The notes: a model not told the origin generated them from the sequence alone. DNA of 64,000 bases from an uncultured delta proteobacterium (GCA_963727485.1 CAVSGM010000002.1:1792001-1856000); one strand, 5' to 3'. Positions 2,599 to 44,943 are shown, counted from the first letter of the stretch. A program made the numbers and translations.

Positions 2599-5500
2599 AT
2601 GGCCGACCCCACCGCCCCGCGCCGGGAGGGCCCCGAGGCCCCAGACCCCGCGTCGACCCGCCCGGCCGACGACGGGCCCCGCTTCGCCCTCTCGTTCATC
2701 GAGGGGCGGGCGCTGGTGGGCTTCGAGGACCGGCCCATCTCCCCCTGGCTCACCGTGCGCCGGTACGCCATGGAGATCCCCGACGTCACCTTCCCCTTCG
2801 ACGTCACCGGGGGCGCCGAGCGCTTCCGCCACCGGCGCTGCCGCCTGGTGGCGCTGACCTTCGAGGCCGACGAGGCCGGGTGCGTCGCCGAGCTCCGCGG
2901 GCGCGTGGATCTCGCCGCCTTCGGCCTCGAGGAGGTCGCGGTGGCCTTCGCCGAGGGCTTCGTGGAGGTCGCCGGCACCGTCGCCGCCGGGCACCTCGAC
3001 GAGACCGGGGGCGACGCCGGCGCCATCGGCGAGCGGGTCCCCTTCACCCTGAAGATCGCCGTGGACGCCTCGGCCGATCGCGAGGTGCGCCTGCTGGTCC
3101 ACGACGTGCGCCTCTACGGCGAGAGCACCCTGGCCGCGCCGGCGGTGGCCACCGCGCTCCTCGCGGCGGTGGCGCACAGCGACCTGCCGGTGGAGACGGT
3201 GGCGCCGGCGGTGGTGCGCTTCGACCCGGTCCCCGGCTTCCTCCGGGGCCTGCTCCCCCGCCACGGGTGGAAGCTCCCGGACGCCCGGCACCTGCGCCTC
3301 ACCGGCGCCGAGATCCACCCCGGGCGCCTCGCCCTCACCTTCGACGCCGGCCAGGGGACCCACGCGCTGCCCGCCGGTGACGCCCTGCGCCCGTTCCTCT
3401 CGGCCCTCGAGGGGAGCCGGGCCTTCGAGGACGCCGAGCGGGCCATCGCCGAGGGGCGCCTCGACGACGCCCGGGCCGCCTACCTCGACCTCGAGGGGCC
3501 GCTCCTCGAGCACCCCTTCGCCGCCGAGCGCACCCTGGCGCTCCTGGCCGCCGAGCCCACCACCCGCGACGAGGCCCTCGACCTCGCCGCCGCCTGGCTG
3601 GAGCGCGAGCCCGGCTTCCCCCCGGCGCTCTGGGTCGCCGCCCAGGTCCGCCGGGCCACCGGGGCCGCCGGTGCCGCCAAGGCCCTGTTGAACCTCTCGG
3701 TCCACGCCCGGGAGCGCGGGGAGATCCTCGGCGCCCTCTTCGCCGCCGCCGCCGCCGGGGCCGCCGCCGAGGACGAGGGCGATCTCGGCCTCGCGGTCAC
3801 CGCCTGGGAGCGGGCGCTGGCCGTCCGGGCGATGCACCCCCCGGCCCTCGAGGCCCTCGCCCGCCTCTACCCGAAGGTCGCCGACCTCGCCGGCGCCGCG
3901 CGGGTCCTGGGCCACCTGCTCACCGTCACCCGGGGGCCCGAGCGCGCCCGGGCCCACCTGGCCCTCGGTCGCCTCCACGCCGAGGAGCTCGAGCCCCTGG
4001 GGGTCCCCGAGGGCGAGGTCGCCCGGGCCTGGCGCGCCCGCCGCGCCGCCGCCCCGTTCACCGGCGACCTCACCCGGGCCAAGCTCCACTTCGACGCCGC
4101 CCTGCGCCTCGACCCCGGGCTCACCGGCGCCTGGCTCTCCCTGGGCCGGGCCTGCGTGCGCCGGGCCGAGCCCCTGCGGGCGGTGCGCTGCCTCGACCGG
4201 GGGGCCGAGGGGCTGCTCGCCGAGGGGCGCCGCACCGAGGCCACCGCGGTGGCCATGGAGATCGGGCGGCTGTGGGAGGAGCAGCTCGGCCACGCCGAGA
4301 ACGCGCTGTTGCGCTACCGGGAGGTCCTCGACGCCGACCCCGAGGCCCTCGAGGCGCGCCTGCGCTACGCCCGCCTCGCCGAGACCCTGGACCACCTCCC
4401 GGAGGCCGAGGGGGCCTTCGAGGAGGCCCTGGTGCTCCTCGCCCCGCGCCTCGAGGCCGGGGGGGCGGACGCCGAGGACGAGGCCGCCCCGGGCCCGGAT
4501 CCCGCCGACGCCGGCGCCGCCCTCGACGCCCACCTGGCCCTGGCCCGCCTCTCCCAGGCCCGGCACCGGGACCCGGCGGCCGCCGCCGCCCACCTCGAGG
4601 CGGCCTACGCCCTCTGCGCCCCCGCCGGCCGCGCCGCCGCCGCCCCGGGCCTCCTCGCCCGGCTGGTGGCCCGCTACGAGGAGTCCGGGGACGCCCGGCG
4701 CCTGGCGGTGGCCTGCACCCGCGCCGCCGCCACCGCCCCGACCCCCGCCGAGGCCGCCGCCTGGCTCGCCCGGGCCGCCCGGGTCCTCGCCGAGGACGTC
4801 GGCGACGTCCCCGCCGCCCGGGCCCGCCTCGCCGAGGCCCGGGAGCGCGACCCCGAGGGCCTCGCGCCCCTGGAGGCGGCGCTCCGTGTCGCCGAGGCCC
4901 ACGGTCCCCCGGCCGCCGCCGCCGAGGCCCTCGAGGCCCTGGCCACCCGCCGGGACGACGCCGACGGCCGCGCCGGGGCCCTCCTCGCCCTCGGCCGCCT
5001 CCGGGCCGGGGCGCTCGACGCCCCCCGGGACGCCCTCGACGCCTTCGCCCGGGCCCGGGCCGAGGCCACGGATCCGGACCTCGCCGCCGCCGCCGCCGCC
5101 GAGGCGGTGGCCGTGGCCCGGCGCCTCGACGACCCCGAGGCCCTCGCCGAGGCCCTGGGGGTGCAGGCCACCGGGCTCACCGAGGCCCACGCCGCCGCCG
5201 CCGTCGCCGAGCTCCGCCTCGAGGAGGCCGCCCTCCGGGAGGGCGCCCTCGCCGATCCCACCGGGGCGCTCGTCGCCCTCGAGGCCGGCGCCGCTGTCGC
5301 CCCGGACGACGCCCGGCTCCACTGGCACCTCGGCCGCCTCCGCCTCGACGCCGGCGACGCCGACGCCGCCCACGCCGCCTTCGGCCGCCTCGTCGCCCTC
5401 GGGGGCCCCGGTGCCGCCGGGGTCGCCGAGGCCGAGGGCGCCCGCCGCCTGGGCGAGGCGGCCATGGGCGCCGGCGACCGCGCCGCCGCCGTGGACTTCC

Positions 5501-8500
5501 TCGCCGCCGCCTGGGACGCCGACCCCGGGGACGCCGCCCTCTACGAGCGGGTCGACGCCCTCCTCGGGGAGCTCGGCCGCCCGGGCGCCCGGGCCGATCT
5601 CGCCCGCCGGGCCGGGGAGGCCGCCCTCGAGGTCGGGGACGGCCCCGGCGCCGCCGCAAGGTTCCTCGCCGCCGCCCGCCTCGCCGGGGACACCCTCGGG
5701 GACCTCGACGCCGCCGTCGCCGACACCCAGGCCGCCCTCGACGCCGTCCTCCCCGAGGACACCGCCGGCCGCCGCCTCGAGGCCCGGGCCGCCACCGGGG
5801 GCGGGCCCCTGACCCCCGACGCCGGCGACGCGGTGGCCGCCGCCGCCGCGGGCCTCCTCCTCGATCTCGGGGAGGCCGCCTCCGACCCGGTGCTCCGGGC
5901 CGACGCCCGGGAGGCGCTCGCCGCCCTCGCCGGGGACGCCGCCCTCGCCGCCGGCCACCTCGCCCGCCGGGCCGACGATCTCGGCGAGGCCGGGGAGACC
6001 GAGGCCGAGGTCCGGGCCCTGGAGCAGGCCCTGGCCCTCGACCCGGCCCGGGACGACCTGCGCACCCGCCTCGCCGAGGATCTCGCCGGCGAGGACCCGG
6101 CCGCGGCGCTGGCCCACTACGAGGTGCTCCTCGCCCCCGACCGCCTCCACCCCGACGCCCTCGGCGCCTCGGATCGCCTCCTCCGGGCCGCCGACCTCGC
6201 CGAGGCCGCGGGGCGCCCCGAGCGCGCCCGCCACCACCTGGGCCTCTACCTCGCCCGGGAGCCCGCCGACGAGGGGGCCCTCACCCGCTACGCCGATCTC
6301 CTCCGGGACGCCGGGGCCAGCGGGCCCCTGCACGACGCCCTGGTCCACCACGCCGAGATCCTCGCCCACCGGGGGAGCCGCGCCGGCGACGAGGCCGAGG
6401 TCGACCGGGCCGTCGCCTGCCTCCTCGAGGCCGCGGCGCTGGCAGAGGGGCCGCTGGCCCGCCCCGACGCCGCCCGGGCGGCCCTGGAGCGGGTCCTGGC
6501 CCTCGCCCCGGACGAGGGCCGGGCCCTCGAGGGCATCCTCCCCTACCTCGACGCCGCCGACGACGCGCCGCTCCGGGCCGACGTCCTCGGGCGGCTGGCC
6601 GAGCAGGCCCCGGACCCGGCCGTCGCCGCCGCCCACCTGGTGGCCCGGGGGGCGGCCCTCCTCGGCCTCGAGGACCTCCACGGCGCCGACGGGGCCTACG
6701 CCGACGCCCTCGAGGCCGACCCCACCTCGGTGGCCGCCGCCGAGGGGCTGGCCACCGTCGCCTGGCTGCGCGGGGACCTCGGGCGCTTCGCCGAGGCCGC
6801 CGCCTGGCGCGCCGACCAGGCCACCTCCGACGGGGAGCCCGGCGCCCCGCGGCGCCACCTGGTGGTCGCCCGCCTCCGCCTCGACGCCCTCGGAGACACC
6901 GACGGGGGCCTCGCCGCCCTCGACGCCGCCCTCGCCGGGGAGGCCGCCCTCGGCGCCGTCGAGGCCGAGGAGGCCCATCGCCGGCGCCTGGCCTGCCACC
7001 TCATGGCCGGGGACGCCGCCGGGGCCGAGGCCGACCTCGGCGCCCTCATCGCCGGCCGCCGCCGGGGCGACCCGAAGGGCCGGGCGGCGCTGCTCCGCCA
7101 CCGGGCCGAGCTCCGGGAGGACCAGCTCGCCGATCCCGAGGGGGCCCGGGAGGACTGGGCCGAGGCCCACGCCCTCGACCCCGAGGACCCGGTGGCCCTG
7201 GGCCGGCTGCTGGCCATCGCCGCCGCCGCCGACGAGCCGGTGGCCCTCGCCTTCCTCCAGGCCGACGACGCCGCCCGCCGGCGCCGGGCCGGGGACCTCG
7301 ACGGCGCCGCCCGGGCGCTCGCCGCCCGGGCCGCCCTCCTCGGCGACCGCCTCGGCAATCCCGCCGCCGCCGTCGACGCCGCCCGGGACGCGGTGGCCAC
7401 CGCCGCCGCCCCGGCCCTCCTCGCCGAGCTCCGGGGCGAGCTCCGGACCCGGCTCCGCGCCCTCGGCGACCTCGACGGCGCCTTCGAGACCGCCCTCGCC
7501 GAGGCCGCCGCCCTCGATCCCGCGGCCGCCGCCGCCCACCTCGCCGCCCGGGCCCGGGAGGCCGACGCCGACGGCCGCCCCGATCTGGCCCTCGCCGCCA
7601 GCCGCGCCGCCTTCGCCGCCGCGGTCGAGGACCCGGTCCTCGCCGCCGACCTCGCCTGGCGCCTGGTCCGGGCCGGGAGCGTCGACGAGGCACGGGCCCC
7701 GTCCGCCCGCGCCGCCGCCGCCACCCCCGAGGCCGTCGCCGCCGCCGCCGACCTCGGCCTCGACGAGGCGGTGGGCCGCCTCGCCCTGGTGGCCTTCGCC
7801 CTCGAGGACGCCGCCGCCGCCGCGGCTCTCCTCGATCGCCTCCTCGCCGCCGCCCCCGTCCGGGCGGGCCTCGCCGACCTCGCCGCGGACCGGGCCGCGG
7901 CCCGGGGCGACCTCGACGCCGCCCGGGGGATCCTCGCCGCCCACTTCGAGGCCGCTCCGGGGCCCGGTGCGCCGCCGGGCGGTGGCCCGGCACCTCGCCG
8001 ACCTCGCCGCCGCCGCCGGCGACGCCGCCGCCGAGGCCCTGTGGCTCGCCGAGGCCGGCGCCGAGGCCCCCGAGGACCTCGCCCGGCGCCTCGACGCCCA
8101 CGCCGCAGCCGGGGACGTCTCCGGCGTGCTCGAGCTCGCCCGCCGGCGCCTCGACGCGGGGCCCGCGGCCGGGGACCGCGCCGGCCACCGCGCCGAGCTC
8201 GGGGCGCTGGCCGGGCGCCTCGCCGACGACCTCGGCAATCCCGCCGCCGCCCTGGCCCTCCTCGACGAGCACCCGGACCTGGTGGCCGACGACCCGCGCC
8301 TCCTCGTCCGCCGCCTCGACGCCGCCCGGGCCGCGGACCGCCCCGAGGCCCAGGCCGCCGCCCTGGTGCGCCTCGCCGAGCTCGCCGGGGACGCCGGCGA
8401 CGACGCCGCGGCCGCCGCCTGGCTGGTCGAGCTCGGGCACCTGCGCCGCGCCCGCCTCGACGACCCGGCGGGCGCCGAGGCGGCGCTCACCGAGGCGCTC

Positions 8501-37013: not shown

Positions 37014-37878
37014 TCAGGGTCCGTCGGCGCCGGCGAGGTAGTCGGGGTAGCGCAGCTCGACGCCGAAGACCGCCTTGGCCTTGGCGTTCGTCACCCGCTT
37101 GGAGCCCAGGAGCGTCGGCGACGGGGCCTCGCTGGCCGGGGCCACCTCCGGCGCCGGGAGCCCGAGGCGCCCGGCGAGGAAGGTCGCCACCTCCCGGAGG
37201 GACGCGGGCCGGTCGTCGGCGAGGTTGTAGATCCCCGAGGCGTCGGGGTCGGCGGCGAGGGCGCGGGCGAGGGTGGCGACGATGTCGTCGACGTGGATCC
37301 GGTTGAGGAGGTTCTCGCCCCCGCCAAAGAGACGCACCCGGCCGGCGCGCAGGCGCCCCTCGAGCCCCCGGCCCCGGCCGTAGATCGCCGCCAGCCGCAG
37401 GACGATGCCGGTGGCCCCGAGGCTGCGCGCCCCCTCGAGGAACACGGTCTCCGCGTCGAGGCGGGCGGCGGCGCGATCGGGCCCGGGGTCCACGGGGCTC
37501 TCCTCGGTGACCTCGCCGCCGTCGCGCTCGGCGTAGACCCCGGTGGTGGACAGGTAGATGAGCGCCCGGGGCGCGGCGGCCGGCGACGACGTCGAGGACC
37601 GCCCGGGCCCCGGCGTCCCGGCGCGGGTCCGGGCCCACCGGGGGCACGGTGTGCACCACCACCGCCCCCTCGGGGCAGATATCGCCGAGGCCCTCCGTCT
37701 CGGGAAGTGCACACACCGCGACCTCGACGCCCCGACCGGCGAGCTCCTCGGCCCGGGCGGGATCGCGGAGGGTGCCAGAGACGGCGATCCCGTGGCCCCG
37801 GAGGGTGCGCGCCAGGTGGGCGCCCACGTGGCCGAGACCGACGACGACGACGGGCGGGGGCGCGGTGGCATCGGGCAT
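37014..37878 (-). CDS. NAD-dependent epimerase/atypical SDR (YeeZ-like), frameshift near 37600
   Basis: VVVGLGHVG Rossmann motif; YLSTTGVY, LRLAAIYG, NRIHVDDI, YNLADD. Confidence 0.85.
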
Positions 37879-38003
37879 GCAGCGTCCATAGCACGGCGCC
37901 GGGCCGGTCGCACCCGGACGCACCCGGGGCCGAAAAGTTGACCGATCCCCACCCTGGGCGACGATGGACGGGCCCGGCGACCTCCGCCGGACGAGGAGGG
38001 AAC

Positions 38004-38375
38004 ATGGACGCGATCCGAACCGAGACGGCACCCGCCTCCACCGCCGTGACCTCGACCCGCAGGGCGCCGGCGAGCGCCGAGCGCCCGCCCCGGGTCCACG
38101 CCGACCTCTCCGTCGAGGTCCGCACCCGCCAGGGCCCGGTGTTCCGCCCGGTGCGCGACCTGTCCCTCACCGGGCTCTACGTGGCCGGCCTCCGGGCGCC
38201 GGTGGGCCACGAGATCCACCTGACCCTGGCGTTCCCCGACGAGGCGCCCCTGTCCCTGCGGGGCCGGGTGGTCCGCTGCGACCCGGGGACCGACGCCGGG
38301 GTGGCCATGGTCTTCAGCCGCATCGGCTGGGACGACATGCTCACCATCGCCCGGTACCTGGCCCCCCGGATCTGA
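38004..38375 (+). CDS. Stand-alone PilZ-domain protein
   Basis: ERPPRV (RxxxR-like), RDLSLTGLYV (DxSxxG), LRGRVVR, GVAMVF. Confidence 0.85.
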   Translation: MDAIRTETAPASTAVTSTRRAPASAERPPRVHADLSVEVRTRQGPVFRPVRDLSLTGLYVAGLRAPVGHEIHLTLAFPDEAPLSLRGRVVRCDPGTDAGVAMVFSRIGWDDMLTIARYLAPRI

Positions 38376-38396
38376 GTGGGGTCATAGCCGACCCAT

Positions 38397-38426
38397 TTTA
38401 CAGTCAGACTGTGAATTCTCTACACT
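38397..38426 (+). promoter_or_regulatory. Sigma70-like promoter with an overlapping palindromic operator candidate
   Basis: TTTACA (38397-38402), 18 nt, TACACT (38421-38426); inverted repeat ACAGTC-A-GACTGT at 38400-38412; AT-rich island in very GC-rich DNA. Confidence 0.6.
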
Positions 38427-38468
38427 GACGGACGTCCTCGCCGGGGAGACACGCCAGGACCCCGACCC

Positions 38469-38909
38469 TTGACCGACGACCCCTCCGTACCCGAGAGCCC
38501 CCCCGCCGAGCCCACCTCGGGCCGGCGACGATTTCTCCGGGAGGGCGCGGGGATGCTGGCCCTCGGGGCCCTCGCCGTGGCGCCCGGCGGCCGCGACCGC
38601 GCCCTCGACGCCCTCCGGGGCCGGGTTCGCACCGTGCGCCTGGGCAGCGCCCGGCCCCACCCGGCGCCCGGTGTCAGCGCCCGGCGCGCCGGTGACGAGC
38701 TGGTGGTCTCCATCCCCGGCGCCGATCCCGGCGTCGCCCTCAACGAGACCGCCGCCCAGGTGTTCCTCGCCTGCGACGGCCGGCGCACCGTCGACGCCAT
38801 CGCCGCCTCGCTCTGTCGGCGCTACCGCGTGTCGCCGGCGCGGGCCCGCCGCGACGCGGGGGCGGTGGTCTCGGCGCTGACGCGCGCCGGGTGCCTCGTC
38901 CTCGGCTGA
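38469..38909 (+). CDS. PqqD-family RiPP recognition element (RRE) protein with a twin-arginine-like N-terminus
   Basis: LNETAAQVFLACDGRRTVDAIAASLCRRY..ARRDAGAVVSALTRAGCL is the PqqD pattern; N-terminal GRRRFLR followed by a hydrophobic stretch. Confidence 0.85.
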   Translation: MTDDPSVPESPPAEPTSGRRRFLREGAGMLALGALAVAPGGRDRALDALRGRVRTVRLGSARPHPAPGVSARRAGDELVVSIPGADPGVALNETAAQVFLACDGRRTVDAIAASLCRRYRVSPARARRDAGAVVSALTRAGCLVLG

Positions 38910-38936
38910 TCCCCGGCGTCCCCGCTCCGGGGCCGC

Positions 38937-39147
38937 TCAGGGCCGGCTGGGGGCGCAGGGTCCCGACGGGCGAGCAGATCTGGGGGTGGCAGGCGTAGGG
39001 TCCGCAGCTCGAGGACGGCGCCGCCCGGGGGATGGGGATTTTGATCGACCGGATCCGAGGGCGGACGTACTTCTTGACCCCGTCGACGATCGCCTCCTCG
39101 GCGGCCTCCAGGGCCTCGTCCTCGATGTCGTTGCGGTCGTCGCTCAT
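38937..39147 (-). CDS. Candidate RiPP precursor peptide (~69 aa after one-base correction), CxP-repeat core
   Basis: MSDDRNDIEDEALEAAEEAIVDGVKKYVRPRIRSIKIPIPRAAPSSSCGPYACHPQICSPVG; dropping one G near 38963 gives PCAPSRP-TGA; starts 6 nt after the peptidase stop. Confidence 0.7.
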
Positions 39148-39153
39148 GGTCCG

Positions 39154-40863
39154 CTACCAGGCGGTGGACCAGGTCAGGCGCCAGCCCGCCGGGAACCGCT
39201 CGAGCCAGTACTCTACCACCTGCGTGGTCTCCCGGTCGCCCTGGTCGGCGGTGCGCAGGGCGTGGACCAGGACCTCGGGGTAGTTGCGGGTGCCGGTGGT
39301 GTAGACCGAGAGGATCCGGGTGTGGACGGTGGCGTCGGTGTCGGTCCGGCCGGTGGCGATCCGGGCCCGGGCGGCGTCGTCGAGGGCGTCGCAGTAGAAG
39401 CCGTCCATGGTCGCCCGGTAGGCCTCCGGGTCCCGGGCGTTCACCGCGGCGTCGGCGTCGTGGATCACCCGGGCGATGGCCGCGCGGTCGGCGTCGGGGA
39501 CCGGGGTGGGCGGCTGGGAGAGGTAGGGGGCCAGGGCGTCCTTCCAGGCGGCGCGGAAGGCGTCGAGGCCCTCCCCGACCACGTGCTGGAGCAGGTGGTC
39601 CATCGCCCGGGCCAGGGAGGGGCCGTCGCTGACCTGGTCGCCGAGGGTGTCGACCAGGGTCCACCCGTGCCAGGTCACCGCGGCGGCGCGCCACAGCTCC
39701 AGGAGCTTCGCCCGGCCGTAGCGGGAGACGAAGAGGCTCACGAACGAGCCGTCCCGACCGTAGTTGCGGCCATAGACGTCGCTGTCCTCGAAACCGTAGC
39801 GGTAGGTCGCGTTCTCCTCGCCGGCGACCAGGTCGTCGGCGTAGGCCTGGTGGCGGTCCCGGCCCGAGCCGTCGAGGTAGACCGCGAGCCCCTCGTCGAG
39901 AAACGGCAGGTGGTCGGTCTTCCCGTCGACGGCGGTGGCGAGGACGTGGGTGAGCTCGTGGCCGAAGTGGTGGCGCTCGTAGCTGTCGTCGCCTTGGAGG
40001 TAGAGGACGTCGACCTCGTGCTTCCAGGGGAAGGCCTGGCCCACGCTGTAGCCGTGGGCGAAGGCGGCCATGCGGTTGGGCGAGAGGACCACGGTGATCC
40101 GCGGGCGGGTGGTCAGGCCCAGGAACTCGCTGATGCGGTCGTAGGCCCGCTGGCGATCCTGGAAGATGGGGTCGAGGTCGGCGGCGGCGGCGGTGCCCGG
40201 GAGGTAGCGCAGGTCGAAGGGGCCGCGCTCGGTGTCCTGGTAGGCGACGCCCGCGTAGGTGGGGACGTCGGCGCAGAGGACCGGCGCGATCGGGCCGCCC
40301 GCGTCGCCGCCGGCGCCGGGGCCGTTGTCGTTGCCCGCGGTGCCGGGGCCGTTGTCGCTGCCCGCGGCCCCCTGGCCGTTGCCGTTGCCGTTGCCGAGGC
40401 CGCTGTCCGGGCCGGCGCCGGTGCCGCCGGTGTCGCCGTTGCCTCCGGCGGTGCCGTTGCCTCCGGCGGTGCCGTTGCCTCCGGCGGTGCCGCCCGCGCT
40501 GCCGCTGGCGCTCCCGCCCTGGTTGGCGCTTCCGTCGTCCTCGCTGCCGGTGCGCGGCCCGGCGCCCGGGACGCCGTCGAGGCCTCGAAGGTGCAGGCCC
40601 CCCGGGAGGCCCGGACGGACGGCGCGCCCAGGCCGGGTCCGCCAGCCGGGGAGGGCGCCGGGGCGGGTGGCCAGGGACGCCACCGGGACGCGCAGCGCGC
40701 TCGGCGTCGCCACCGGGCGGGTCGCCGCCGCCGGGGCGCCGCCGGCCGTCGCCGGGCTGGCGGCGGTCGTGGTCGGGGGCGCATCGGTGGGCGGCGCCGC
40801 CGGGGCGGTGCAGGCGGCGGCGAGGAGGACGAAGGCGAGGGACGGGGGGGCGAGTCGGCGCAT
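39154..40863 (-). CDS. Lipoprotein with a gluzincin (peptidase MA-like) zinc metalloprotease domain
   Basis: Lipobox LAAAC; Gly/Asn-rich linker; HELTH followed by FLDEGLAVY (HExxH + ExxA). Confidence 0.8.
   Translation of the reverse strand: MRRLAPPSLAFVLLAAACTAPAAPPTDAPPTTTAASPATAGGAPAAATRPVATPSALRVPVASLATRPGALPGWRTRPGRAVRPGLPGGLHLRGLDGVPGAGPRTGSEDDGSANQGGSASGSAGGTAGGNGTAGGNGTAGGNGDTGGTGAGPDSGLGNGNGNGQGAAGSDNGPGTAGNDNGPGAGGDAGGPIAPVLCADVPTYAGVAYQDTERGPFDLRYLPGTAAAADLDPIFQDRQRAYDRISEFLGLTTRPRITVVLSPNRMAAFAHGYSVGQAFPWKHEVDVLYLQGDDSYERHHFGHELTHVLATAVDGKTDHLPFLDEGLAVYLDGSGRDRHQAYADDLVAGEENATYRYGFEDSDVYGRNYGRDGSFVSLFVSRYGRAKLLELWRAAAVTWHGWTLVDTLGDQVSDGPSLARAMDHLLQHVVGEGLDAFRAAWKDALAPYLSQPPTPVPDADRAAIARVIHDADAAVNARDPEAYRATMDGFYCDALDDAARARIATGRTDTDATVHTRILSVYTTGTRNYPEVLVHALRTADQGDRETTQVVEYWLERFPAGWRLTWSTAW
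40435..40488. repeat. 18-bp tandem repeat x3 encoding TAGGNG in the peptidase linker
   Basis: gccgttgcctccggcggt repeated. Confidence 0.85.
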
Positions 40864-41039
40864 GCCCCGGGTAAGAGCAGCGGCCGTGCCACCGGGCCCG
40901 AACCGGGAAGCGCCAATGGTTCCGAGGATCTGGGGGCTGCGCGGGTGAGGATTGCCCGGGTCGGCGGGGCCGGGCGGGTCACCTGGCACCCGGCCCGCGG
41001 GGACCCGGGCCCCGCCCCGCCGTGCTATGCTCCGTGCGG

Positions 41040-43302
41040 ATGGCCCGGGCTTCCCTTCCCATCCTCGGCACGGGGGCGGTGGCACCAGCGGCGCCCCGGC
41101 CCCTGCGGTTCGCCTGGCTGGAGCTGACCCACCGCTGCAACCTCCAGTGCGACCAGTGCTACACCAACAGCACTCCCCGCACGCCCCTGGGGAGCCTGCC
41201 CACCGAGCGCTGGCACCGCCTCCTCGAGGAGATCGTCGCCGCCGGGGGGAAGACGGTGCAGTTCACCGGCGGTGAGGCCACCACCCACCCGGACCTGGTC
41301 CCGCTCCTCGAGCACGCCGCCGGGCTCGGCCTCGCCGTCGAGCTGTTCACCAACGCCACCCGCCTCGACGACGCCCTGATTCGAGCGCCTCGCCACCCTC
41401 GGGGTGGCGGTGGCCACCTCGCTGCACAGCCACGAGGCGGCGGCCCACGACGCCATCACCCGGACCCCCGGGAGCCACGCCCTCACCGTCGACGCCATCC
41501 GCAGGCTGGTCGCCCGGGGGATCGAGGTCCGGGTCGCCGGGGTGCTCATGGCCGGCAACGCCGACCACGGCCCGGCCACCGAGGCCCTCATCCGGCGCCT
41601 CGGCGTCCTCACCCCGTTCAAGACCGACCCGGTGCGCCCCACCGGCCGGGGGCGCAAGGCCGAGTCCCCGGCCGAGGTGGCCAGCTGCACCGTGTGCGAC
41701 GACGGGACCTTCCAGGCGATGCACACCGATCCCGCGGGCCCGGCGCCGTCGACCTGCTGGGACGGGCGCATCGCCGTGAGCCCCCGGGGCGAGGTCTACC
41801 CCTGCATCTTCAGCCGCGGGGCGAAGGTGGGCAGCGTCGCCGACACCCCGCTCCCCCAGGTCCTCGCCCGCGGGCCCCTCGCCGGGCTCTGGGCCCTGAC
41901 CACCGACGACGTCCCCGAGTGCCGGGACTGCGACCGGAAGGGCGTGTGCTTCGACTGCCGGGCCCTGCCCCTCACCGCCCTCGGCGACGTCACCGCCAAG
42001 AACCCCCGGTGCGACTACGTGCCCCCGGCCAGGCGCCCCAGGCGCCCGCGCCCCGAGGCGGCGAGGGTGCGCCCGGGTCTCCTGGGCCGGGACCTGGCCG
42101 GCGAGCGGCTCCTGGTCGACGCCGCCACCGCCCGGCTCCACCGCCTCGACGCCGGGGCCGCGGCGATCCTCGACGCCCTGGCCGCCGGCGCGTCGGAGGC
42201 CGCCCTCGCCGCGGGCCTCACCCGGCGCTTCGGCCTCGCCCCGGACGAGGCGGCCTCGGAGATCGCCACCGTCGCCGACGGCCTCTGGGACGCGGGGCTC
42301 CTGGTGGACCCCGCGGGCCGGGACGTCACCGGGGACCGGGTCCTCGCCGGCGTCGCCCCGCCACCGGTGCCCGACGCCCTGGGCCTGGCCGCCGGCGCCG
42401 CGGACCCGGCGGCCGGGCGCGCCGTCGCGGACACCCCCGCCGCCGAGGTCCCCCGGCGCGCTCTCCTCGGCCTCCTCGGGCGCACCGTGGCCCTCGCCGC
42501 CGACGCCGCCGCCTGGGCCGAGCTCGAGGCCCTGCTGGCCCCCCTGGCCGCCGACCCCGGGGCCACCCCCGAGGCCACCATCTCGGTGGTCTCCCGCCGC
42601 TCCGCCCCCCACCTCGGGGCGCTCCACCACGTCCTGGTCGACGGCCGGCAGGTCCGGGCGGTGCGGACCCCCGGCGCCCTGCGCTCGGCGGTCGAGGAGG
42701 TGCTGTGCACCCTCGCCGCCGAGGGCCAGGGCGACCTGCGCCTCCACGCGGCGGTCCTGGTGGGCCCCGCCGGGGCGGTGCTCATCCCCGGGGCCTCTGG
42801 GGCGGGCAAGAGCCTGCTCGCCCTCGCCGGGGTCGCCGCGGGCCTCGGCTACGGCACCGACGAGGCGGCGCGGATCCCGCTGGTCGGCGAGGTGGTGGTC
42901 GACGCGCTCCCCAAGCCGGTGACCGTGAAGGCCGCGGGCCGGCCCTGGGTCCCCCCGGCGCTGACGGCCCGGTGGATCCCCCCGGACGTCGCCGACCCCG
43001 ACGACTACGCCTGGGTGCCGCTGGTCGGCAGCGCCCCGGCGCCGGTGGTGGCGGTGGTCCTCCCGGATTGCTCCGGCGCCACCGAGGGCCTCGCCCCCTG
43101 CGAGGCCGGCGACGCCGCCGAGGCCCTCCTCGCCGGGGTCTTCAACCTCGGCGGGGCGGGGGTCGCCGCGGGCCTCGAGGCGGTGTGCCGCCTGGTCGAG
43201 GGCGCGGCCTGCCTCCGCCTCGACACCCGGGACCTCCCGGCCGCCGGGGCGCGCCTCGCCGAGCGCCTCGGCCAAGGCGCGGCCCGGGGCACCGGCACCT
43301 GA
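41040..43302 (+). CDS. Radical SAM/SPASM peptide maturase fused to a PqqD/RRE domain and an HPr-kinase-like P-loop domain; frameshift at ~41380
   Basis: [86 protein letters not shown]; kinase LHAAVL..GASGAGKS..GTDE; removing one T at 41380 restores IERLATLGVAVATS. Confidence 0.88.
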
Positions 43303-43315
43303 GCTTCGCCGGGCG

Positions 43316-44943
<1,628 letters not shown>

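Follow-up and report, generated by a model that had tools for sequence, protein, structure and literature searches.

The 64,000-nt stretch analysed here (the window; GCA_963727485.1, CAVSGM010000002.1:1792001-1856000) is part of contig C2 in the 5.55-Mb genome (73% GC) of an uncultured delta proteobacterium and carries a compact locus for a putative ribosomally made, post-translationally modified peptide (RiPP). Four genes lie between a PilZ gene (38004-38375; PF07238, 6.5e-11) and pruA (PF00171): a free RiPP recognition element (RRE), a short peptide with repeated Cys-x-Pro (CxP) units, a predicted lipoprotein zinc peptidase, and a fusion of radical SAM (rSAM), SPASM, RRE and HprK-like kinase domains (Table 1). 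An earlier note on this DNA had described these genes and their strands, and domains and coordinates agreed with its description. It had further proposed a self-contained four-gene pathway. The locus is real and conserved, but it is not a one-off: it is the fused Myxococcia version of a CxP family found in multiple phyla.

Table 1. Features of the CxP locus (window coordinates)
Feature	Position	Strand	Basis
Sigma-70-like promoter site, 5' of the free RRE	38397..38426	+	9/12 consensus matches
Free RRE of PqqD fold; 146 aa; N-terminal segment resembling a twin-arginine signal	38469..38909	+	PF05402, 1.7e-12
Tat-like segment of the RRE: RR motif and 16 uncharged residues, then Arg-rich stretch	38517..38591	+	Tat-like rule
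Precursor peptide, 69 aa with extra base 38965 discounted	38937..39147	-	Frame and motif
YxxP-type RRE-binding motif of the leader (predicted)	39046..39069	-	Kept in family precursors
Predicted lipoprotein zinc peptidase (gluzincin-like), 569 aa	39154..40863	-	Motifs and weak Pfam match
rSAM-SPASM-RRE-HprK-like fusion, 753 aa with extra base 41380 discounted	41040..43302	+	Pfam domains

The window holds a +1 frameshift in the precursor gene and another in the fusion gene; in the raw precursor, three CxP units are in frame, and the fourth and the stop lie in the +1 frame. Two such lesions could mark a decaying locus in which this organism's precursor and maturase genes have become pseudogenes. 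However, near-identical contigs from salt-marsh and sediment runs of four studies (one run may be related to the window's source) lack precisely these bases: base 38965 is missing in runs X1 and X3 (two of four runs; the other two do not cover the site) and base 41380 in runs X1, X2, and X4 (three of four). Because the other runs lack exactly those two bases, both frameshifts are assembly errors, as the earlier note had assumed in calling for their correction, and discounting them yielded open frames of 69 and 753 codons without internal stops. Moreover, the housekeeping gene pruA (43316-44943) and a neighboring NAD-dependent epimerase gene (37014-37898) are also frameshifted, consistent with long-read errors; the near-identical protein P0002 is shifted at other places; and the GC content at third codon positions stays at about 0.99 across the whole fusion gene. 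We therefore rejected the pseudogene reading, which is very improbable. A 135-aa read-through precursor overlapping the RRE gene was likewise rejected on the evidence of the G002 precursor (see below) and of the other runs' contigs.

The corrected precursor runs from an acidic N terminus through the leader motif Y-x-x-P-x-I-x-S and three Ser residues to the units CGP, CHP, CSP, and CAP, with a 5-5-6 spacing that is identical in the G002 precursor. YxxP is described as the RRE motif of lasso type (PMC12710340) and occurs in the leaders of linear polyphosphorylated peptide (LPP) systems as well (PMC13381572). Among the 22 precursors of the kinase-bearing group in the wider family, it is present in 20, with one-residue variants in L109 and L039. 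In these precursors the CxP spacing is mostly 5 to 7, Pro occupies position +2 for 106 of 111 Cys residues (Pro frequency, 0.23), and positions +1, +3, and +4 vary; Cys and Pro are the only invariant core positions. No conserved aromatic or Lys residue was found in the family cores, and the number of Cys residues per precursor is often odd (3, 5, 7, or 11). In 15 of the 22 (expected fraction, 0.28), the first CxP is preceded by a Ser or Thr at a distance of at most three residues, and four of the remaining seven end in Ser or Thr. A leader Ser/Thr at Y+7 was set aside as a kinase site, as four precursors have Gly there, and matches of the precursor to MinE (E 0.03-0.05) were dismissed as chance. 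Neither tblastn nor a motif scan found a second precursor elsewhere in the genome.

In the fusion, Radical_SAM (3.2e-13), SPASM, and PqqD scored above the Pfam cut-off and HprK_rel_A (1.1e-9) below it. The protein has a CxxxCxxC motif, a linker CxxC, and seven SPASM Cys residues, followed by the RRE (about 42109-42303) and the kinase domain (about 42442-43284), in which the Walker A motif reads GxSGxGKS and TDE is present. Across the family, the seven SPASM Cys residues are conserved, and the kinase Walker A and acidic pair (DE/DD) are intact. With a seven-Cys SPASM domain, the first auxiliary cluster presumably retains an open site, as it does in enzymes that form thioethers (anSME/CteB numbering). 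The window enzyme thus has the CxxxCxxC motif, SPASM Cys motif, RRE, and adjacent conserved peptide that broadly define an rSAM-SPASM RiPP maturase. Its best solved structural relative is the sactisynthase SkfB (E 4.9e-34), followed by PqqE (E 7.9e-27). Among homologues, the rSAM region is unbroken in G002, whose contig ends inside the kinase domain, and G003, P0003, and P0005 are full length. In G003, a second, divergent rSAM gene follows the fusion directly (L012:7085-8626), whereas the window has none at the corresponding position. Elsewhere on C2, outside the window (about 1,515,000-1,565,000), some dozen rSAM-like open reading frames (ORFs) lie within 50 kb.

Of 61 related genomes, three have the fusion, namely, that of the window (G000), G002, and G003, and among 401 genomes of the phylum it occurs in at least those three; no full match was found in two other members of the family, G001 (97% complete) and G004 (85%). 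G002 and G003, which represent two other genera of the family, carry the cluster at the same site in the chromosome. One contig of G002 holds the PilZ, RRE, precursor, and peptidase genes, ordered as in the window, and a second holds the fusion, each contig breaking off in the N-terminal region of the peptidase; in G003, PilZ, RRE, precursor, and fusion are present without the peptidase. The earlier note had named three findings that would speak against it, namely, fusion homologues lacking a neighboring CxP peptide, four genes that never co-occur elsewhere, and an exact match to a characterized class. Both homologues with context have the peptide, all four genes are found in G002, and no class was matched.

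A profile search of 1.84 billion representatives returned, among its best 150 matches, only P0001, P0002 (near-self), and P0005 as matches spanning the kinase part; the others were rSAM-SPASM proteins with or without a C-terminal RRE. By these genome and profile counts, the four-domain fusion is lineage-restricted. The wider family was sampled as at least 80 metagenome and at least 80 genome loci (160 listed), to which the counts of this and the following paragraphs refer. L025 and L102 encode the same proteins, as do L053 and L104, and L101 is G002; left out of the counts were L040, L063, L111, and L120, where the contig was too short or a precursor was not found, and L103, whose contig begins within the precursor. 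Fused-RRE enzymes are encoded at 6 metagenome and 13 genome loci. An HprK-like gene or domain accompanies them at 5 of the 6 and 13 of the 13, respectively, which bears out the assignment of the kinase to the pathway in the earlier note, and an NTP-transferase-like gene is found at 4 and 7. Unfused relatives in several phyla have the CxP precursor upstream, then rSAM-SPASM-RRE, then a kinase gene directly downstream; this separate gene is, as judged from sequence, the unfused form of the window's protein. Hosts among the genome loci include Latescibacterota, Planctomycetota, Nitrospirota, Desulfobacterota, Acidobacteriota, and Poribacteria. The CxP precursor stands next to the enzyme at all three Myxococcia fusion loci with context and at 19 further loci, and at the sequence level a precursor with YxxP leader and CxP repeats always adjoins this enzyme clade. 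The precursor-enzyme link of a genuine RiPP-type locus, as originally proposed, thus holds.

Two other groups share the CxP motif. The second (L177, L126, L172, L137, L157, L161, L178, and L144) pairs SPASM enzymes lacking RRE and kinase with free CxP peptides that bear another leader; several of these loci share a short E-L-x-K-V leader motif, which in L126 is repeated inside one precursor. The third consists of sister enzymes without a full SPASM motif, in which the CxP repeats form the C-terminal tail of the enzyme itself (46/56 genome and 47/74 metagenome loci). These CxP-tailed enzymes (L129, L117, L112, L132, L148, L175, and about 90 others) come from Actinomycetota, Pseudomonadota, Acidobacteriota, candidate phyla radiation bacteria, and archaea, and are likely self-modifying enzyme-substrate fusions; such fusion in cis is, among the sequence data, the best argument for CxP repeats being the substrate. 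At L127 a PEP-CTERM protein gene (4857-5669) separates precursor and rSAM genes, and polysaccharide or exosortase-type regions surround several loci of the family, as is the case for LPP loci.

The free RRE of the window carries at its N terminus the motif G-RR-R-F-L-R, reminiscent of a twin-arginine translocation (Tat) signal. R19 and R20 are invariant in 8 of 8 aligned free-RRE homologues, RRRFL is kept in P0162 and P0163, and tagged RREs from three phyla closely follow the Tat consensus at +2 to +4 (F/L, L/I/V, K/R). Such segments were scored with a Tat-like rule of our own, written after TatFind (RR-x-hydrophobic-hydrophobic near the N terminus, then an uncharged stretch), which 49 of 2333 ORFs of this genome (2.1%) pass. 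The result is a complementary pattern. Type K precursors (eight loci, including the window) have a basic patch before YxxP and no hydrophobic stretch, and none of the eight passes the rule; at seven of these loci an additional, free RRE lies upstream, and each of these seven RREs passes. Type T precursors (14 loci) have RR-x-L-L-K, a hydrophobic stretch containing YxxP, and an AxA-like site, and 12 of 14 pass; those of L109 and L039 are degenerate, with the hydrophobic part kept and the RR pair gone. Tagged RREs are found at 0 of the 14 type T loci, four of which have a short free RRE without extension and the others none. Of 15 other free RREs found in ten searched genomes, none passes. In the enzyme tree, type K loci fall into three supported clades (Myxococcia plus L105, Latescibacterota, and Nitrospirota), with the backbone unresolved. 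TatC is present in all three Myxococcia genomes (G000, G002, and G003) and in three of four other type K genomes. G003 has a second twin-Arg-tagged RRE away from the locus on contig C15 (L019:1495-2085), with no precursor in view, flanked by what we take to be SpoVR-like and M23-like genes. In P0167 and P0169, an RRE is fused ahead of an RR-hydrophobic-AxA segment and a Cys-rich core, placing chaperone and precursor in one chain.

The peptidase combines a lipobox Cys18, a Pro/Ala/Gly-rich linker, H302-E303-x-x-H306, E324, and two invariant Cys residues. HExxH, the downstream Glu, and both Cys residues are invariant in seven of seven known family members, so that the ligands expected of a gluzincin are in place. 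Its match to Peptidase_MA_2 (7.5e-5; 23.1 of 32.4 bits) is below the gathering score, its Atlas neighbors include a cluster in which 46% of the members carry Peptidase_MA_2, and no PDB chain matched better than E 0.27. Six nucleotides separate the peptidase stop from the precursor start, as noted earlier, and in G002 stop and start overlap. In 401 genomes of the phylum and 368 of the class, strong matches were confined to G000 and G002; a match in G280 proved to be a multi-domain protein of 789 aa, distantly related and without locus genes in its vicinity, and was discarded. Both strong matches lie directly upstream of the precursor, so the peptidase may well trim the leader outside the cytoplasm. 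As a predicted lipoprotein with two invariant Cys residues, it should be extracytoplasmic. It is nonetheless an accessory, dispensable gene of the locus, since it is present in one of two other genera and at none of the 160 wider loci listed; its inclusion as an integral part did not stand. Gly/Asn-rich repeats occupy the linker (40300-40560), and its length varies, since the X3 contig is 18 bases shorter there.

Two promoter-like sites were found in the region, against 0.0 +/- 0.1 in shuffles. The G002 RRE has upstream of it a -35 hexamer similar to that of the RRE promoter site here, and a second promoter-like site on the minus strand (38395-38422) overlaps the latter.

Taken together, these data favor, with chances slightly better than even, a pathway in which the fused enzyme cross-links and phosphorylates the CxP peptide and the tagged RRE carries the product out via Tat. 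The RRE within the fusion would very probably hold the precursor leader. The rSAM-SPASM domain would probably form Cys thioethers. With no invariant positions other than Cys and Pro, the simplest product would have such a link inside each CxP unit, from the Cys to its Pro or to a neighboring residue of that unit. The HprK-like domain would quite probably phosphorylate a Ser just before the first CxP; LppK is described as phosphorylating core Ser3 and PsmK a C-terminal Ser, and the Ser/Thr positions in family precursors appear to match these target sites. The rigid product would then pass to the free RRE, and it is on balance plausible that the folded RRE-peptide complex would leave as a Tat hitchhiker, a mode of export described as established (PMC4273604); bulky cyclic peptides are reported to be poor Sec substrates (PMC11626156). 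In relatives, a precursor with its own Tat-like signal would go out by Tat directly, with no carrier needed. Outside the cytoplasm, the lipoprotein peptidase would remove the leader, a step to which we give slightly less than an even chance; loci lacking it would depend on a housekeeping peptidase. There is indeed no ABC exporter gene at the locus, as the earlier note had remarked, and predicted Tat export, at which only its title had hinted, likely explains the lack. As a tentative extension, the Tat signal may have passed, within the CxP family, from the precursor to an additional RRE, which would transport a cross-linked phosphopeptide, with a lipoprotein gluzincin freeing the core and the core bearing a new Cys-to-Pro link.

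This scheme draws on gene content, motifs, and co-occurrence, and several points count against it, beginning with the fact that we infer both chemistry and export. On the chemical side, the additional CxxC that four of five fusion proteins have in the linker might occupy the auxiliary cluster site, which goes against thiol binding there, and 3 of the 22 precursors (L104, L116, and L188) fit neither Ser/Thr rule. SPASM enzymes are described as catalyzing several chemistries (PMC10114670), PqqE is the second-best solved relative, and no conserved acceptor exists at +1, +3, or +4; the enzyme might therefore form C-C links or epimerize or desaturate residues beside Pro, leaving the Cys residues free as metal ligands or for disulfides after export. 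We consider a product without thioethers unlikely, though well short of negligible. The cores have no aromatic or Lys residue conserved, odd Cys counts are ill suited to disulfides, Cys-x-Pro is invariant in free and enzyme-fused substrates alike, and SkfB is the closest solved structure.

With regard to export, L105 has a type K precursor on a contig cut inside the rSAM gene, and no RRE was found in the 5 kb upstream or in its incomplete 2.6-Mb metagenome-assembled genome (MAG). A single type K clade was not rejected (35 sequences; AU p 0.054), so the 7/8 pattern may go back to no more than a single event. The L104 genome (a 1.9-Mb MAG) gave no TatC match, and TatC is common in any case (11/14 controls). 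These points weigh against a Tat carrier, and others suit an alternative with the same chemistry, in which the RR-hydrophobic segment is an intracellular docking or membrane-anchoring helix, moved from the precursor leader to the RRE, rather than an export signal. Such a helix accounts equally well for the complementary pattern. The segment of P0167 and P0169 lies about 100 residues inside the RRE fusion, which a plain signal-peptide reading does not explain; three tagged-RRE h-regions have only 12 residues; the tagged RREs, that of the window included, show no clear signal-peptidase (AxA) site; TAT_signal_seq (TIGR01409) reached 13.6 bits against a cut-off of 16.7 in the L104 RRE only and was not reported for the window RRE and the others; and the L109 and L039 precursors retain the hydrophobic part alone. 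Nevertheless, the near-consensus motifs of the tagged RREs, the AxA-like ends of the precursor versions, a co-transcribed peptidase that is predicted to be extracytoplasmic, and the lack of another exporter all favor Tat export, and we consider an intracellular helix unlikely, if far from negligible. Less settled is the peptidase, which could be an immunity or turnover enzyme, or a passenger in the divergent promoter region, rather than a leader peptidase. Its absence from G003 (98% complete) and the wider loci counts against the proposed trimming, and five further homologues are without known context; against such other roles, both strong matches sit in this locus, and the short gap here and the overlap in G002 indicate co-translation with the precursor. 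We regard such another role as a real possibility, albeit not the favored one.

RREs are known from the cytoplasm, as adaptors for modifying enzymes and peptidases. If the pathway is as proposed, an RRE that exports its own client would be a new role for these domains, would explain RiPP clusters without transporters, and could serve to secrete macrocyclic peptides. The CxP locus is conserved and uncharacterized, and the invariance of Cys-x-Pro points to cross-link chemistry outside the curated families. The same repeat occurs free, Tat-tagged, and enzyme-fused across many phyla, and the locus, with one 69-aa peptide and one four-domain enzyme, offers a compact test case for this unstudied, widespread motif. 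Our literature searches turned up neither a described CxP rSAM family nor a Tat-tagged RRE; large rSAM atlases (supplements, subscription journals) may list the clade. A look-up of set terms found no passage on CxP, kinase, or Tat in PMC10288494, PMC7470986, and PMC12710340.

By its sequence features, the pathway would work like a sactipeptide or ranthipeptide route with an LPP-style leader and kinase. As the earlier note had held, it fits no recognized class: neither the window pieces nor five intact relatives reached the cut-off of any NCBIfam equivalog, and the locus fell outside sactipeptides and ranthipeptides (family cut-offs), LPP (peptidase, NTP transferase, exporter, and lack of a cyclizing enzyme), SynChlorMet, HPr-rel-A, and lasso peptides. 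Sactipeptide and ranthipeptide systems (SkfB, AlbA, StsB, and CteB) likewise use an rSAM enzyme with SPASM or twitch domain and an RRE on a Cys-rich peptide; here, in contrast, the RRE is C-terminal to SPASM and followed by the kinase, the cores are CxP, the leader is YxxP, and no ABC exporter is present. The maturases scored 53-88 of 625 bits for StsB, 39-75 of 300 for SkfB, and 45-79 of 850 for AlbA, with the G003 fusion at 88 and 75 for the first two. The SynChlorMet cassette and the HPr-rel-A system (TIGR04248-04251 and TIGR04352-04353; bioinformatic only) also combine rSAM/SPASM, PqqD-like, and HprK-like parts, and HprK_rel_A is the best model for the kinase domain. The locus here differs in having one rSAM instead of two, CxP instead of CxxG cores, and all scores below cut-off: at most 89 of 400 bits for ScmE/F in the fusions, 12 of 100 for ScmD, 37.8 of 200 for TIGR04352, and 14-21 of 35 for TIGR04353. 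Four stand-alone relatives reached 103-158 of the 200 bits for TIGR04352.

LPP systems, as described in PMC13381572, share the YxxP leader, discrete RRE, HprK-like kinase, and a phosphorylated Ser near the core start, and often an NTP transferase and a polysaccharide-locus context, the former also found at 7 of the 13 genome loci above. Unlike the window locus, they are described as lacking an rSAM, using a SipW-like peptidase and an MsbA-like exporter, and occurring in Bacillota (PMC13381572); no SpI-like peptidase, NTP transferase, or MsbA-like exporter was found at the window locus. The genome has one PF14907 gene, on another contig, and such genes occur in five of five family genomes with or without the locus. 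This NTP_transf_5 gene was not supported as a remote partner, as it is also present in G001 and G004, which lack the locus. Phosphorylated lasso peptides (paeninodin and pseudomycoidin; PMC6993621) resemble the locus in YxxP leader, B1-like RRE, and HprK-like kinase; the locus has an rSAM and no Asp/Glu ring site, and no lasso cyclase or B2 leader peptidase domain was found in the four genes or scanned flanks. Bufferins and lipoprotein RiPPs (PMC11626156, PMC13056109) are similarly reported as RiPPs without a dedicated exporter, but their Sec or lipoprotein signals sit on the precursor. The nearest parallel for the proposed export is offered by Tat hitchhikers such as HybOC and PaoABC, in which, as described in PMC4273604, an untagged partner is carried by a Tat-tagged subunit.

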